From a virus, in the IMG/VR virus record IMGVR_UViG_3300007735_000801: a stretch of 64,000 bases of DNA. One strand, written 5' to 3'. The first letter of the stretch is position 1, and each line of letters starts with the position of its first letter. Of the stretch, positions 1,762 through 55,619 are shown piece after piece. The notes beneath the pieces are model-generated. The model worked only from the letters and a program-made list of their open reading frames with translations, was not told where the DNA came from and did not search any database. Both the position numbers and the translations under genes were made by a program.

Positions 1762-3473
1762 TCGTATTCAAGACTGTTCGATTTAAAAATTTTGGTTCAT
1801 TTGGAAACAGCTTTACCGAAGTTAAGTTAGGAGAGAAATCCACCACTCTAGTATGTGGTAGTAATGGTAACGGCAAATCCTTTGCTTTATTGGATTCTAT
1901 TGCCTTTGCATTATATGGAAGACCATTTCGTAACATCAATATCCCGCAACTAGTTAATTCCGTAAACAAAAAGAATTGCGTGGTAGAGATCAATTTCAGT
2001 ATTGGAAAGAATGAATTTAAGGTAGTTCGTGGTCTAGCCCCAAAATTATTTGAAATCTATAAAGACGGTAATCTACTAAATCAAGATGCAAAGATTAAAG
2101 ATTATCAGGAAGTATTAGAATCTCAGATATTAGGAATGAACTTTAAGACGTTCTCTCAGGTTGTTGTATTAGGAAGTTCATCGTTTGTTCCGTTCATGCA
2201 ATTAACTCCTACTGATCGCCGTCAGGTTATAGAGAACATATTAGATATTAGCATATTCTCTCAAATGAATGTTGTAGTTAAAGATAAGGTTAATGGGGTT
2301 AAGTCTGAACTAGACGCAACCAATACTCAAATAGAAGTAACTAAAGCACAAATTGCAGACACCAAAGAAACTATTCAGTCTCTAGTAAAGAACACACAAC
2401 AGATTATAGAAGAACGTAAAGCAGCACAGGCGCAACTAAAAGCCGAAATGGTTGTCATACAGACTGATATAGATGAGTTGTCAGAGCCATTAAAGATTTC
2501 TGGTACCTCAATACAGAACGAATTAAAGGAAGTTCAAAAGAAACGAACAGATGCTCAAAAGATTCTTGGCAAAATTGAACAGGCTAAAGAGAGTATTAAC
2601 GAAGATATTGAATTCTTTAATAATAATGAAACCTGCTCTTTATGTAAACAGGGAATTGCCCATGACCACAAAGATGCCCTACTAACACAAAGAAAAACAA
2701 AGTTGGATGAGTACCAGCAAGGTACTCAGGATATAAACACACAAATTGCAAAGACCGAGAAACAAATAGAAGAGATTCAGGGTCGATTAAACGAACACCA
2801 AACTAATGTTATTCGTTTGGCTAATAAACGAGAAACCTTAAAGAGTCTTAATACTAGTCACGCAAATCTTGAATTGAACAATGCCAAGACATACTCCCAA
2901 GAAGAGATTGCCAAGTTTGAGAGTAAACTCGTAGAATTAGAAAATAAAGAAGTTGATCTGATTGATAAAAAGTATAAAGTCCTAAAGACTCTGAAATGCT
3001 ACGATCAACTTATAAATTTATTTAAAGATAGTGGCATTAAATCAAAAATTATTAAGTATTATATCCCTTTAATCAACAAACATGTAAACAAGTACTTGAC
3101 AAGCATGGATTTCTATGCTATATTTAATCTGGACGAAGAGTTCAAAGAAATCATCAAGAGTCGCCACCGAGACATATTCACATATGAATCATTTAGTGAA
3201 GGCGAAAAAATGCGTATAGATTTGGCACTGCTTCTTACTTGGCGAGAAATTGCTCGATTAAAGAATAGTGTTTCCACCAACCTTCTGATTCTAGATGAAG
3301 TTTTTGATTCTAGTTTAGACGGTACTGGAACTGATGAGTTTATGAAATTGATATCTTCGTTTGGATCTAAGGTTAATGTATTTGTCATCAGTCATAAAAC
3401 TGATCAATTACTAGATAGATTTGGTTCAATAATTCAATTCGAAAAGAAACGAAACTTTAGCAGATTAGTATGA
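1758..3473 (+). CDS. gp46: Recombination endonuclease ATPase subunit gp46 (Rad50/SbcC-like)
   Basis: Walker A GSNGNGKS, coiled coil with CSLC zinc hook, signature FSEGEK, Walker B LILDEVFD, ISH. Confidence 0.96.
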   Translation: MIVFKTVRFKNFGSFGNSFTEVKLGEKSTTLVCGSNGNGKSFALLDSIAFALYGRPFRNINIPQLVNSVNKKNCVVEINFSIGKNEFKVVRGLAPKLFEIYKDGNLLNQDAKIKDYQEVLESQILGMNFKTFSQVVVLGSSSFVPFMQLTPTDRRQVIENILDISIFSQMNVVVKDKVNGVKSELDATNTQIEVTKAQIADTKETIQSLVKNTQQIIEERKAAQAQLKAEMVVIQTDIDELSEPLKISGTSIQNELKEVQKKRTDAQKILGKIEQAKESINEDIEFFNNNETCSLCKQGIAHDHKDALLTQRKTKLDEYQQGTQDINTQIAKTEKQIEEIQGRLNEHQTNVIRLANKRETLKSLNTSHANLELNNAKTYSQEEIAKFESKLVELENKEVDLIDKKYKVLKTLKCYDQLINLFKDSGIKSKIIKYYIPLINKHVNKYLTSMDFYAIFNLDEEFKEIIKSRHRDIFTYESFSEGEKMRIDLALLLTWREIARLKNSVSTNLLILDEVFDSSLDGTGTDEFMKLISSFGSKVNVFVISHKTDQLLDRFGSIIQFEKKRNFSRLV

Positions 3474-9558: not shown

Positions 9559-10322
9559 AAACCAGAGTAATAAGTAGAATTAAATCATCACGAAGACCTA
9601 CAATACAGAAGCATCTTGAATCCAAAGATGTTTCTTTTTCGTTTTTTGATGCAGCAGATAAATTTAGCATTACAAGAAACGATTTAACCTTTAGTTATAA
9701 ATGGCATAATATTTCTGTTAATACGGATAATAATTACGGAGATTCTTTTAATGGTAGAAAATGGGTAAATATTGGTGAGATCGGTTGTCTATTCAGTCAT
9801 TATTCTTTATGGAAAGAATTGGCAGAAAGCGAATACGATGCTACTTTGATTCTAGAAGATGATGCTAAATTGTTATTCACTGGAGAGCAATTAACAGAAT
9901 TTACAAAAACTCAAAATCTTGATGGAATAGATTTGATATTTTGCCAAAGAAATTCACCAAACTTTGTTACAGGTAAACGAGCATTTGAACACCTAACTAA
10001 TAAAATCGAAATATTGGCTACTACACAAGCATCCTTTTGGGAAATTTGTGAAGGAACTGCTGGTTATATCTTAACTAAAGCAGGAGCCAAGAAATTAATA
10101 GCACCAATCGAACAATTTGGTTTTTTGTTTCCAGCGGATAATCATATTCTTAGGTGTACACAAAAACCACCAATCGGTCTTGCTATTTTTGGAGGAATGA
10201 ATGCATTCCTAACCACGAAAGAACTCCAAATAGAATTAAGTGAATATGCTAAGACAAGCGAAATTCATGATAAAAAAGAAGAAACTATAACCATGGTTGG
10301 TAATATAAAATTTAAAGATTGA
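9546..10322 (+). CDS. Glycosyltransferase family 25 (LgtB/Lex2-like)
   Basis: RR, FFDA.D, GEIGC..SH..LW, LILEDD, GTAGYILT..GAKKL, PAD. Confidence 0.88.
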   Translation: MFTLETRVISRIKSSRRPTIQKHLESKDVSFSFFDAADKFSITRNDLTFSYKWHNISVNTDNNYGDSFNGRKWVNIGEIGCLFSHYSLWKELAESEYDATLILEDDAKLLFTGEQLTEFTKTQNLDGIDLIFCQRNSPNFVTGKRAFEHLTNKIEILATTQASFWEICEGTAGYILTKAGAKKLIAPIEQFGFLFPADNHILRCTQKPPIGLAIFGGMNAFLTTKELQIELSEYAKTSEIHDKKEETITMVGNIKFKD

Positions 10323-52998: not shown

Positions 52999-53568
52999 TT
53001 ACTTTGCAGGTAATACGAACCTTACACCCCAATACCACATCGGATTTCCGTTGCCAAACAGCATCCAATCCTCTACCTTTAGCGGGTCGTAACTGCGCCA
53101 AATGCCTGTTCGCATATCCACAGTAAATACCCTGCCTGTGCCACCAAGTTTATGCCAGACAGCCAGACTTTGAGGTGTCTGTTGTGCATCACTCAGTACT
53201 GTAACCCCCTGCTGTGACATCCAGTTATACAGGTTAGGTGCAATGTCGTGACCAATCCAGTCACCATGCACTCGAATCATGTCTACAGTATAGACACGAC
53301 GACTCCAAGGCAATACGATAGGTGCGCTCAGGAACTTGGCGTATGCCACAGTTTTGCCGTTCACCGAGCACTTCACAATCATGCCGTGACCTTGCTCTGT
53401 GGCAATCTTCTTCGTGCTGACCTCTACTGGAAAATTAGTAGCATCAGGCAGACGACTGTTTGTCCAAAACGCTTTCGAGCATTTCCTGTCCCATGTATGC
53501 CCCTTTACGGCATTTTCAAGTTTGTTGTTGTGGTCCGAGTTAATAACGATATGCGGTGTTAAAATCAT
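52999..53568 (-). CDS. GNAT-fold acetyltransferase-like early protein
   Basis: I.V..DW.G.DIA..LY…G.T..SD..QT….AVW.KL. Confidence 0.55.
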   Translation of the reverse strand: MILTPHIVINSDHNNKLENAVKGHTWDRKCSKAFWTNSRLPDATNFPVEVSTKKIATEQGHGMIVKCSVNGKTVAYAKFLSAPIVLPWSRRVYTVDMIRVHGDWIGHDIAPNLYNWMSQQGVTVLSDAQQTPQSLAVWHKLGGTGRVFTVDMRTGIWRSYDPLKVEDWMLFGNGNPMWYWGVRFVLPAK

Positions 53569-53574
53569 ACTGTA

Positions 53575-53602
53575 ATTATACCTTGTAAAATGGAGAAGTC
53601 AA
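53575..53602 (-). promoter_or_regulatory. Early sigma70 promoter (leaderless)
   Basis: TTGACT-16 bp-TATAAT, 6 nt to ATG. Confidence 0.85.
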
Positions 53603-53607
53603 GTAAA

Positions 53608-54237
53608 TTAAGAAAATTTATATTGTAGTGTTGATTGTATTTCAGAAATTATGTTTGTGGATTTATTAATGTAATTTTGTATTGCGTCTATTACTTTAAC
53701 ATCTTTATTCTGAGTTTTTAAATTATCAGCAATCCTAATTCTATGTTCCAAATGCAACATATGTGCTTCTTCTGGAGTAGTCACTAAATGACTATAACCT
53801 AATTTGCCGTAAGATGCTTTATACATTCCTCTTATTTGTACCACACCATTAGGAAGATTTGGATTTTTGTTTGGTATGTTAACAAAAAAATAATTAGTAG
53901 CAGGAGAAACAAAACAACAAGTTTCTGCAGAATAACACTTGTTTCCTGGAACTAAAATATCTTTGTCTAGTTGGTATCCGTCTACGTATTTGTCTACTGC
54001 CCAATCATAGAAGGTCATATAATCATTCAACCAAGATTTAGACACATAACATTCTGCATAGGACGGAAATATGTTTAATCTATATGGAGCATAACATCGT
54101 TCAATCAGACTTGCGTATCGACGATGTATGGGACATCTCCACTGCACCTTCCATTTTCCGTTTATATGAGTTGTGTACCTAGTAGTATAATTTGCATTCA
54201 TATTGGCAATACTAAGTATTCTTGAACTTGATTTCAT
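53608..54237 (-). CDS. HNH-like (homing) endonuclease with AP2-like C-terminus
   Basis: RCY…PSY..C.V…W…F..W, QLDKDIL..GNK.YS.ETCCFV…N, LP.GV, TPEEAH; AT-richer than neighbours. Confidence 0.75.
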   Translation of the reverse strand: MKSSSRILSIANMNANYTTRYTTHINGKWKVQWRCPIHRRYASLIERCYAPYRLNIFPSYAECYVSKSWLNDYMTFYDWAVDKYVDGYQLDKDILVPGNKCYSAETCCFVSPATNYFFVNIPNKNPNLPNGVVQIRGMYKASYGKLGYSHLVTTPEEAHMLHLEHRIRIADNLKTQNKDVKVIDAIQNYINKSTNIISEIQSTLQYKFS

Positions 54238-54254
54238 GTATATCTCCTATTCAT

Positions 54255-54381
54255 TTACGATCATCGTATTGGTTTACGATAATCGTAATATAATCATACC
54301 CTTACGACCATTGTAGCCTGTTACGATCATCGTAACCTGTTAGGGCATTACAACCATCGTAACCTGTTACGATCATCGTAA
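54255..54381. repeat. Array of six 15-bp 7-1-7 palindromes (consensus TTACGATnATCGTAA) in three pairs
   Basis: Copies start at 54255, 54274, 54302, 54321, 54348, 54367. Confidence 0.92.
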
Positions 54382-54385
54382 CTTG

Positions 54386-54685
54386 CTAGTGCCATTTACG
54401 ACCCTTCATACCATTATACCTATCGAACTTATGCTTCAGCCGCTCAGGTACGGTAGCCTTCATACGAGTCATAAGTTCACTCCAGCGACCACCTGTCATC
54501 TTGTCAGGCGTTATGTTATGATCCACCCCTACCTGTGGCGTACAATCAGCCCAAGACTTGTGGACGCATTTCCTAGCCTTACATTTTGGGCAGGGCTTCT
54601 TGGTGGGCAGTTCACAGTCTGCCATACTCTCAAACTGTTCCCAAATATGTTGGCATTTGCGACATTCATAATTATAATTCGGCAT
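54386..54685 (-). CDS. FmdB-family zinc-ribbon protein
   Basis: MP.Y.YEC.KC.H.WE…CPKC. Confidence 0.85.
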   Translation of the reverse strand: MPNYNYECRKCQHIWEQFESMADCELPTKKPCPKCKARKCVHKSWADCTPQVGVDHNITPDKMTGGRWSELMTRMKATVPERLKHKFDRYNGMKGRKWH

Positions 54686-54738
54686 GATGTATATATCTGT
54701 CCTTTGGGTAAATCTTTACAGAACTAAGACCCATAACA

Positions 54739-54766
54739 AATATACATCCGATAACCTAGAAGTCAA
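54739..54766 (-). promoter_or_regulatory. Sigma70 promoter for the FmdB-array-HNH unit
   Basis: TTGACT-16 bp-TATATT; AAAGGA RBS before the FmdB start. Confidence 0.7.
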
Positions 54767-54992
54767 GGGGAACTACCGACGAATTTTATGGGACTATGCG
54801 CCAACTATCAACAACGCCGACCCCAGACCACAGCCGTCTGGACGCAGGGCAAGCCGAACCAAGTTATATTAATATATCCAACAGCACCCCCCTGAAGGCA
54901 AAAAGCCATAGTAAACTCTAATTTTAACGAAGCGGGAACTATATTAATATAATTCAAACCTGTCCGTGAAAGCCACCAGCAAGCCCGTGAAA

Positions 54993-55619
54993 TTATTTCA
55001 CAGGATAATACTTAGACAAGGCTTTGTAGACGGTGCGTGGAATGGTCAGGTCGGCACGGCGGCTGAAGTCTGTGGGCATGATGCGGTAGATGGCTTCAGA
55101 CAGGTAGGGATTTCCCACCGTGTTCCACTTGCCGCTGTCACGCATCAGGTGGTGCGAGTAAATGTATAGGTTTGCATACTTGGCGTACACCTTCGGGTTA
55201 ATTGGCAGATCGTATTGTCTTGCGATCCTGACCGCCCTAATCTCGGCATCCCTCTCATACGCCATGACTCGTCGGAACGCTTTGTGGACGATTGTAGGGC
55301 TTGCCTTTCCTTTGCCGCCCCCATGCAACCAACGGCTGACGATCACATTAGCGTGGCAGTCTGCATTATACACATTTGCAGGGGTTTCTAGCCATTGCTT
55401 GAAGTGGGCGTACTCGTGGACAAGCACCTGTAGCCAGTCTGCCCTGCCCCCTGCCACCTTGATCACACGCTTGTCCTCGTCAAAGAACCCCGATGCTCTC
55501 CACCCTTCACCTGAATTAAGTTGTTGTCCTCTACCAATTAAAAAACGGAATCCATAGGAATGGAGTTCCGCTTTAATAGAGTCTAAGAATTTAATAGTTT
55601 GGGGGTTTCTACGATGCAC
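54993..55619 (-). CDS. Zincin-like metallopeptidase domain protein
   Basis: GFFD, VLVHEYAHF (HExxH), downstream E.DAE. Confidence 0.65.
   Translation of the reverse strand: MHRRNPQTIKFLDSIKAELHSYGFRFLIGRGQQLNSGEGWRASGFFDEDKRVIKVAGGRADWLQVLVHEYAHFKQWLETPANVYNADCHANVIVSRWLHGGGKGKASPTIVHKAFRRVMAYERDAEIRAVRIARQYDLPINPKVYAKYANLYIYSHHLMRDSGKWNTVGNPYLSEAIYRIMPTDFSRRADLTIPRTVYKALSKYYPVK

Follow-up and report, generated by a model that had tools for sequence, protein, structure and literature searches.

A tandem array of six palindromic sites is located at positions 54255-54381 of a 64,000-nucleotide stretch of viral DNA (IMG/VR record IMGVR_UViG_3300007735_000801), here referred to as the window. 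Comparison with related loci indicates that the array belongs to the adjacent gene for an FmdB-like zinc-ribbon protein and not to the HNH gene on its other side. Of the functions proposed in the initial annotation, the comparative data best support a cooperative platform to which a dimeric DNA-binding protein would bind. The array would then consist of tiled, two-fold symmetric duplex-DNA sites for a dimeric, phage-encoded and sequence-specific protein, a reading to which we assign a probability of roughly 0.45.

The sequence TTACGATnATCGTAA was present in six copies with 0-3 mismatches each. The palindrome has a 7-1-7 geometry (TTACGAT-N-ATCGTAA) and three copies in the array are perfect. 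A check of the sequence reproduced the arrangement described at the outset: copies start at 54255, 54274, 54302, 54321, 54348 and 54367, with spacings of 19, 28, 19, 27 and 19 and 4-nt linkers TGGT, CCTG and CCTG. The second copy of each pair is indeed the perfect one, the mismatches to TTACGATNATCGTAA being 1, 0, 3, 0, 2 and 0, respectively. Copy 1 (54255..54269, TTACGATCATCGTAT) carries one mismatch, copy 2 (54274..54288, TTACGATAATCGTAA) none, copy 3 (54302..54316, TTACGACCATTGTAG) three and copy 5 (54348..54362, TTACAACCATCGTAA) two. The degenerate copy 3 is retained in identical form in the relatives L013 and L016. Copies 4 (54320..54336) and 6 (54366..54382) extend to a perfect 8-1-8 palindrome, GTTACGATCATCGTAAC, again as described.

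The array nearly fills the non-coding gap, as had been claimed, and occupies 127 of the 148 bases from the FmdB stop (54386) to the HNH-like start (54237). Copy 1 is the last copy on the coding (minus) strand and ends 17 nt ahead of the HNH-like start codon. At the other end, the distance from the FmdB stop codon to the first palindrome copy was 4 nt in all six palindrome-bearing close relatives (L013-L018), and the word GGTCGTAA, which resembles a half-site, lies inside the last FmdB codons (54396-54406). Tandem Repeats Finder divided the array into a 46-bp super-unit (1.9 copies, 88% matches) and a 19-bp unit. The rest of the window contained only three further matches, scattered and with 3 mismatches each. 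In 2000 shuffles of the window, matches with at most 3 mismatches falling inside 130 bp formed clusters of no more than 2, compared with 6 observed, and an exact match was never obtained compared with 3 observed. Because of these shuffles, a chance origin of the six-copy cluster is excluded.

Within the array no sigma-70-like promoter was found on the coding strand; a perfect TATAAT is present in each 28-bp unit, on the antisense strand and without a -35 element. Terminator-like sites were not predicted at the array, and Rfam gave no match at E<=1.

The window encodes a T4-type DNA polymerase, a ribonucleotide reductase, a gp46-like nuclease subunit, a DnaB-like helicase, CobS and a VWA 'peptidase'. 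Its late genes follow (T/C)(A/T)TAAATA, and its early genes follow TTGAC(A/T)-N16/17-TAnAAT, mostly with 6 further nt and then the ATG. The phage is T4-like and virulent and belongs to an uncultured freshwater group. A DNA search of cultured phages with positions 53500-54800 yielded only short matches to the HNH gene, and no cultured phage is close to the window.

In IMG/VR a single relative was found, L001, with a size of 153.85 kb. Its flanking genes share 85-95% protein identity with those of the window, and the gene at the HNH position shares only 30%. The order in L001 is the zinc-ribbon gene, six palindromes with a 28-bp period, a 67-aa ORF, a seventh palindrome copy and another HNH gene. 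A search for the 15-mer, which had been proposed as a check, showed that the motif is confined to this locus in the window as well as in L001, where no palindrome occurs elsewhere in the 153.85 kb. Furthermore, a metagenome scan based on an alignment of FmdB homologues yielded 80 loci, the majority of them in metagenomes of lakes and other aquatic habitats. The syntenic order is cobS, a 101-aa gene, the VWA 'peptidase' gene, a gene for a 208-aa HExxH protein, FmdB, a variable slot, a 189-aa gene and a gene for a large protein.

The linkage of the array to FmdB, its conservation, the anatomy of the sites and their position relative to promoters can be read directly from these loci. We defined the motif family as WTAVRAWNWTYBTAW, allowing no more than one mismatch and two unpaired positions, corresponding to the half-site GTTAsGAw. 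At loci whose FmdB was at least 48% identical, 159 family-motif matches were located within -250/+450 bp of the gene (21.3 kb) as opposed to 5 in the other 115 kb. Below 48% identity the family motif was at background, and most of these distant FmdB homologues are found in tight gene clusters without any array.

A tie between the array and the HNH gene, as suggested initially, did not hold up when co-occurrence was checked in the relatives. The array is accompanied by either of two unrelated HNH types or by a Cys-rich HNH ORF, and at other loci it faces a convergent gene. In near-identical phages the slot behind it holds one of three genes. HNH type 1 is present in the window and L013; HNH type 2 is present in L014, L016, L018 and L019, and its members share 65-82% identity with one another and 30-35% with type 1; in L015 and L017 the slot is taken by a Cys-rich ORF whose C-terminal part carries a Pfam HNH domain. 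L016 combines the three-pair array of the window with HNH type 2. Among relatives at a greater distance that carry an array, L022, L023, L025, L027, L029, L034, L039 and L046 have no forward gene downstream, and the array spans from the FmdB stop to the stop of a convergent gene. Finally, L019 carries HNH type 2 and a 189-aa gene of 94% identity, its FmdB is only 64% identical, and its repeats are of another kind. Three different slot genes, convergent partners and an HNH-bearing locus with other repeats therefore argue that the array is not tied to HNH.

The region from FmdB to the 189-aa gene (53568-54385 and the corresponding slot of L013-L019) has the look of a hot spot, either for homing or of the hyperplastic kind. 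The phages with the three differing slot genes are 83-96% identical in the flanks of the slot, and in L001 and L014 an additional basic ORF of 67 aa lies between two palindrome copies. The conserved leader ATGAATAGGAGATATAC (54238..54254, minus strand) holds the ribosome-binding site of the downstream gene and also precedes the unrelated genes that occupy the slot in relatives. The conserved 189-aa gene (52999..53568, minus strand) forms the far boundary of the slot and has its own early promoter at 53575-53602.

These features raise the question of a local recombination cassette resembling the promoter/stem-loop (PeSL) elements, in which the repeats would provide homology for gene swaps between FmdB and the 189-aa gene. 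Three slot genes that follow an identical last palindrome and leader in near-identical phages, the two copies that bracket the extra ORF in L001 and L014, the uncoupling of array type and HNH type in L016 and the fast change of copy number, between 4 and 8, would all fit. PeSLs, however, are described as a series of elements within hyperplastic regions (PMC4122927), whereas the present motif is confined to one locus and its unit lacks a convincing coding-strand promoter. Conservation of the motif extends to the upstream side of FmdB and to loci where the slot holds one fixed convergent gene. Recombination would then be a by-product and not the reason for the conservation, and we consider a cassette function quite improbable.

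The number of copies in the array varies from 2 to 9 among relatives and changes fast. The same 15-mer is retained between lineages whose FmdB proteins are only 58-60% identical and whose spacers are not alignable. Neutral slippage duplication of a chance palindrome without any function had been named as the outcome that would deprive the array of meaning. The perfect tandem units of 28, 38 and 46 bp and the rapid change in copy number do show that slippage or unequal exchange is active, and an unrelated Treponema MAG carries a long tandem array of the same palindrome (see below). On the other hand, the palindrome is kept on both sides of the gene across 50-60% FmdB identity while the spacers are lost, and the symmetric variants as well as the fixed promoter geometry are not what slippage would leave. 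The conservation in relatives thus disfavours an origin by slippage alone, which we regard as very improbable.

The identity of the motif turns over with the FmdB lineage: there is a GAT type and a GAA type, and other repeats are found in L019, L040 and L064. L019 (200-750) carries five 22-bp direct units GATGGGGTCGTGAG(T6)AGT downstream of FmdB and three 31-bp units GGGTCGCAAATATCATATAAAATTATGAATA upstream. L040 has four CGGACAGGACC units with a 22-bp period that are direct and not palindromic, and L064 has yet another repeat set instead of palindromes. On the FmdB tree only 2-3 changes of site type are needed, and therefore the agreement between site type and FmdB carries no independent weight, as it would follow from shared descent of linked DNA. 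A search for FmdB residues that co-vary with the site type had no power, as the label changes only 2-3 times on the tree.

The anatomy of the sites was analyzed in 140 copies (54 distinct 15-mers) from 29 distinct arrays. Positions 2, 3 and 6 and their partners were near-invariant across the 140 copies. Pair 4/12 was CG in 79 copies, CC in 14, and GC and GG in 8 each; the remaining copies had further unpaired combinations. The occurrence of CC and GG indicates that the two halves choose C or G independently. The non-Watson-Crick pairs comprised 90 'other' pairs compared with 29 G-T and 18 A-C pairs, and therefore a marked wobble preference on the sense strand is not apparent. Positions 7 and 9 were TA in 46, AT in 76, TG in 13 and mixed in 3 copies. 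They switch together between lineages (GATnATC vs GAAnTTC) and would be unable to pair in a hairpin because only one base is enclosed between them. Of the distances between neighbouring sites, 56 were 18-19 bp, 16 were 28-29 bp and 15 were 37-39 bp; the 18-19 bp spacing means that sites are tiled edge to edge and are not phased at multiples of 10.5 bp. As a whole, this anatomy is what a two-fold symmetric reader of duplex DNA predicts and not what is expected of a stem-loop. On the sense strand the centre base was unevenly distributed, with 64 T against 18 A and 38 G against 20 C.

A word of the form CGGAAC(C/T) / GGAC(A/G)GGAA accompanies the palindromes in L020-L037. It is always in forward orientation, 10-20 nt before palindromes or pairs, on both flanks of FmdB, and it is missing from the array of the window. 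In the L020-L037 lineages it forms a second element of the repeat unit.

The same data bear on whether the sites act as hairpins, in RNA or single-stranded DNA, on the FmdB transcript. Such hairpins could form a 3'-UTR or 5'-UTR element that stabilises the FmdB message, stops or processes read-through or tunes downstream translation. Folding of the sense-strand RNA gave -57.8 kcal/mol compared with -34.3 kcal/mol for shuffled sequences (z=-6.5), a value that follows trivially from the palindromes. Neighbouring copies with a 3-4-nt linker could form stems of 14-15 bp, the centre base is strand-biased and in relatives the array lies between convergent genes. Additionally, relatives of the L020 type show reverse-strand palindromes followed by T-rich runs, which resemble a terminator for the convergent gene, although such T-runs are missing in most lineages including the window. 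Against hairpins, the stem-breaking combinations CC, GG and CT at pair 4/12 are commoner than the compensated GC, G-T is not much above A-C, and positions 7 and 9 co-vary although they could not pair. The lack of a terminator-like site and of an Rfam match counts in the same direction. In L025 and L033, moreover, the upstream copies extend over a promoter whose end lies 5 nt ahead of the ATG, which places these copies outside that transcript. Interchangeable RNA hairpins that control HNH expression, as put forward in the initial annotation, are weakened by the frequent stem-breaking combinations of half-sites and by the independence from HNH; we give little credence to hairpins as the functional form.

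In most array-bearing relatives outside the clade of the window (L020-L034, L037 and L045) a late-type element [ACT]TAAATA ends 5 nt before the FmdB ATG (7 nt in L045), and outside the clade of the window most relatives have no Shine-Dalgarno sequence upstream of FmdB. With ATAAATA so close to the ATG, FmdB outside this clade therefore appears to be a late and nearly leaderless gene. The counterpart of the late element in the window is GATATATA, followed by CATC. Palindromic sites cover the FmdB promoter region in the relatives L020-27, L033, L039 and L044. The first upstream palindrome lies 12-13 nt past a TTGATA hexamer in L027, L033, L039 and L044, later upstream copies step by 18-19 nt and in L025 and L033 the last copy runs onto the late ATAAATA element. 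The upstream copies in relatives thus seem to have the geometry of an operator and to lie outside the late transcript. In the clade of the window there are no upstream copies and all copies are downstream of FmdB.

In the window, FmdB is preceded by two sigma-70-like promoters (54739..54811, minus strand; TTGATA-17-TAAAAT and TTGACT-16-TATATT), which sit within a conserved non-coding stretch of about 300 bp. This stretch (54686-54992) is well conserved in L014-L018. It contains a GTGAAATAATTTCAC hairpin just past the 208-aa gene, two TATATTAATATA palindromes and a CCAGAC/GTCTGG hairpin. A motif of the GTTGATAGTT type is present once upstream of FmdB in the window and twice in relatives, there in a TTGATAGT-like form, and TTGATAGT-like motifs also precede FmdB in distant relatives. 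The stretch may have a regulatory role or encode a small RNA; a comparison with Rfam produced no match.

Pairs or triplets of the palindrome (TACGATnATCGTA) were also found in three IMG/VR contigs, in L008 at 3323-3361, in L010 at 10205-10280 and in L011 at 9565-9612. In these unrelated viral contigs the sites adjoin or lie between the -35 and -10 elements of CI/Cro-like switch regions, beside genes for CI-like repressors of the S24 or Xre type; two of the three encode homologous S24-type repressors. No homologue of the CI/Xre repressors of these contigs was found in the window. The sites are probably operators of temperate-phage repressors, and their presence in CI/Cro-like regions shows only that the sequence is usable as an operator.

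Among 185,579 bacterial and archaeal species genomes, tandem pairs of the exact palindrome with gaps of 2-30 nt gave one match. It is located in a Treponema sp. MAG (JAIRYV010000050.1; L093, 4606-4950) and is a tandem repeat that is not at a promoter. This array consists of AGTTACGACCATCGTAATCAGTCT with a 24-bp period in at least 12 copies and is flanked by genes for an OmpR-type response regulator and a Tex-like protein; the shared palindrome may be a coincidence. The single match bears on the idea, considered at first, that the array serves as a decoy or sponge and captures a host regulator, such as a member of the Fur family with its 7-1-7 boxes. The 7-1-7 geometry and the many copies would suit a decoy, and the PerR box matches the half-site of the palindrome at 5 of 7 bases. 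The only tandem pair among the 185,579 genomes is, however, a tandem repeat and not an operator, and the motif changes with the phage lineage. Beyond the 7-1-7 geometry nothing was found in favour of a Fur-family box or host decoy, and the idea is hardly credible.

Several other candidates were rejected. The spacer units in the array of the window are identical or near-identical and no CRISPR-type genome match was obtained at gaps of 2-30 nt, which speaks against a CRISPR array or repeat-mimic RNA. The boxes of NtcA, LacI-family proteins, BlaI, DtxR and LexA did not fit the palindrome. A Dam site (GATC) requires G or C as the centre base, and the GAA-type relatives lack it.

The FmdB-type zinc-ribbon protein of 99 aa (54386..54685, minus strand) matched Pfam Zn_ribbon_8 with E=7.6e-8, just under the curated cut-off, and phrog_385. 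It contains CxxC...CxxC followed by a basic helical C-terminal half, and the AF2 model (pLDDT 77) shows a zinc ribbon and then three helices. A profile search against PDB sequences returned generic zinc-finger noise only (E>=0.06). Foldseek with the model returned only generic zinc-ribbon pieces (MCM zinc finger, rubredoxin) and no informative fold match. Profile and structure searches thus gave no match to Rep, O or any other solved protein. The ESM Atlas contained viral FmdB clusters only, and tblastn against 50,697 phage records gave no match and no cultured phage. The most conserved segment among FmdB homologues, TGGRWSELM, does not vary with the motif. The distant homologues without arrays and this conserved segment therefore indicate that the FmdB protein needs no such sites in general.

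The HNH-endonuclease-like protein of 209 aa (53608..54237, minus strand) matched phrog_953 with E=2e-50, and neither a Pfam HNH nor an AP2 domain was found in it at E<0.01. It aligns to the C-terminal halves only of PHROG HNH families (profile positions 206-398 of 420). We regard it as a putative endonuclease; its gene is a mobile occupant of the slot and is not linked to the array.

The gene directly upstream of FmdB is a conserved neighbour and encodes a HExxH metallopeptidase-like protein of 208 aa (54993..55619, minus strand). HEYAH and ERDAE are invariant among its homologues, and Pfam gave DUF6782 only, with E=6e-4 and below the cut-off. In the structural comparison of its model (pLDDT 85) the best neighbours were PprI/IrrE (Z 6.3, 98 residues aligned, rmsd 3.5) and ArdC (Z 6.1); the HTH-M78 regulator 6cyj reached Z 5.5, and Foldseek E-values were 0.3 or higher. 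This likeness of the predicted structure to PprI/IrrE and ArdC is weak, under the level of kinship, and is to be taken as a lead and not as a finding.

The array may also be an iteron-type cis site for replication, packaging or another DNA transaction, in which case an origin would lie in the flank of FmdB. Regular spacing of four to nine repeats of 15-17 bp, repeats on both sides of a small gene in relatives, a lineage-specific motif at a single locus of the genome (L001) and the adjacent conserved non-coding stretch of about 300 bp with AT palindromes and promoters would agree with this. Cumulative GC skew, which had been suggested as a check, fell steadily through 54 kb, and the sole turn was at about 34.7 kb, where transcription changes strand; the lack of a turn at 54.3 kb is weak evidence in a T4-like genome. 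Against iterons there is also the FmdB protein itself, which with 99 aa resembles no initiator and is kept by distant relatives without arrays. An origin function is therefore, in our view, rather unlikely, on a par with the hairpins.

Returning to the dimeric reader as the preferred explanation, we infer protein binding, an FmdB-like reader that possibly acts together with the peptidase, and a transcriptional output. A dimeric phage-encoded protein would read the half-site GTTAsGAw in 7-1-7 or 8-1-8 arrangement. The sites over the FmdB promoter region in relatives would be arranged like an autoregulatory operator. In the downstream cluster, where sites follow each other every 18-19 bp without gaps, dimers would assemble into an unbroken row at the point where the FmdB unit ends. 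In the window this row would gate read-through into, or expression of, the mobile gene of the slot, which here is HNH-like. By position only, the FmdB-like protein is the leading candidate for the binder, possibly paired with the HExxH peptidase as in repressor/protease modules.

Several observations stand against the dimeric reader. No copy lies upstream of FmdB in the clade of the window, most distant FmdB homologues lack an array and the FmdB model gave no informative fold match. In many relatives the downstream array lies between convergent stops, where no downstream promoter is left to regulate. The repeats at the equivalent place in L019 and L040 are direct and not palindromic. Furthermore, the bias of the centre base on the sense strand is not predicted by a perfectly symmetric site.

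In a more far-reaching version, FmdB-family zinc ribbons would be sequence-specific dimeric DNA binders, with the array as the first natural set of operators or iterons for the family. Combined with the IrrE-like peptidase, the array would make up a repressor/protease switch or an initiator/iteron origin of a virulent T4-like phage, and where the hyperplastic late-gene locus begins or ends the row of dimers would be a boundary that holds back read-through or the tracking sliding clamp. We consider this version unlikely as a whole, if somewhat less so than hairpins or an origin.

Small zinc ribbons are annotated as 'FmdB family regulators' in many bacteria and phages. To our knowledge, a defined nucleic-acid target has not been reported for any FmdB-family protein. 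A conserved cis element with lineage-specific variants that is physically tied to an FmdB-like gene provides a concrete pair of gene and site. The element also marks a hot spot at which genes for homing endonucleases and candidate internal proteins are swapped in a large uncultured group of freshwater T4-like phages. If the sites were neutral or purely structural, the locus would be an ordinary variable intergenic region.

The Fur, PerR and Zur boxes are 7-1-7 inverted repeats with an AT-rich T-T-A start and a TA core that are bound by a dimeric reader. The phage palindrome shares the 7-1-7 geometry and the T-T-A start. Unlike these boxes, it has a CG core instead of TA, no Fur-family gene is located nearby, the motif was not found as operator pairs in bacterial genomes and the 19-bp tiling is atypical.

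The origin of lambda contains four palindromic iterons of 19 bp bound by O dimers, and in the incC-repA-incA region of P1 sets of iterons flank the gene of a small DNA-binding protein. As in both systems, several regular repeats of 15-19 bp adjoin a small gene in the phage described here, and as in the lambda origin each repeat is itself two-fold symmetric. The relatives are similar to P1 in that copies flank the gene and cover its promoter, and that specificity differs between lineages. In contrast to P1 and lambda, the adjacent gene encodes a 99-aa zinc ribbon without similarity to Rep or O, the phage is virulent and T4-like, an AT-rich unwinding element does not directly adjoin the array and the copies in the window are only downstream of the gene.

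T4 itself carries the oriE iterons, evenly spaced direct repeats of 12 nt near repEA/repEB, which are conserved in the syntenic regions of relatives and whose role is not established (PMC3016281). Both are evenly spaced clusters of short repeats at one T4-type locus with syntenic conservation. The present repeats are palindromes of 15-17 bp that adjoin an FmdB-like gene, in distinction to oriE, and homology is not claimed; the element is a possible counterpart to these unexplained iterons. PeSL cassettes are described as compound elements of early promoter and terminator that occur in series within hyperplastic regions of T4-like genomes (PMC2839356, PMC4122927). Like PeSLs, a short conserved motif capable of forming stem-loops here brackets variable ORFs that are swapped between close relatives, but the phage array is confined to one locus, is in tandem and has no clear promoter or terminator.

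Finally, the locus can be compared with ImmR/ImmA and DdrO/IrrE, modules of a repressor and a metallopeptidase. The putative regulator here is a zinc ribbon and not an Xre-type HTH protein, and the phage is virulent. As in these modules, the gene of a small putative DNA-binding protein is located directly downstream of a HExxH peptidase gene, whose model is nearest to PprI/IrrE, ArdC and HTH-M78 (Z 5.5-6.3, below the level of kinship), and in relatives palindromic sites are found at the promoter of the putative regulator.
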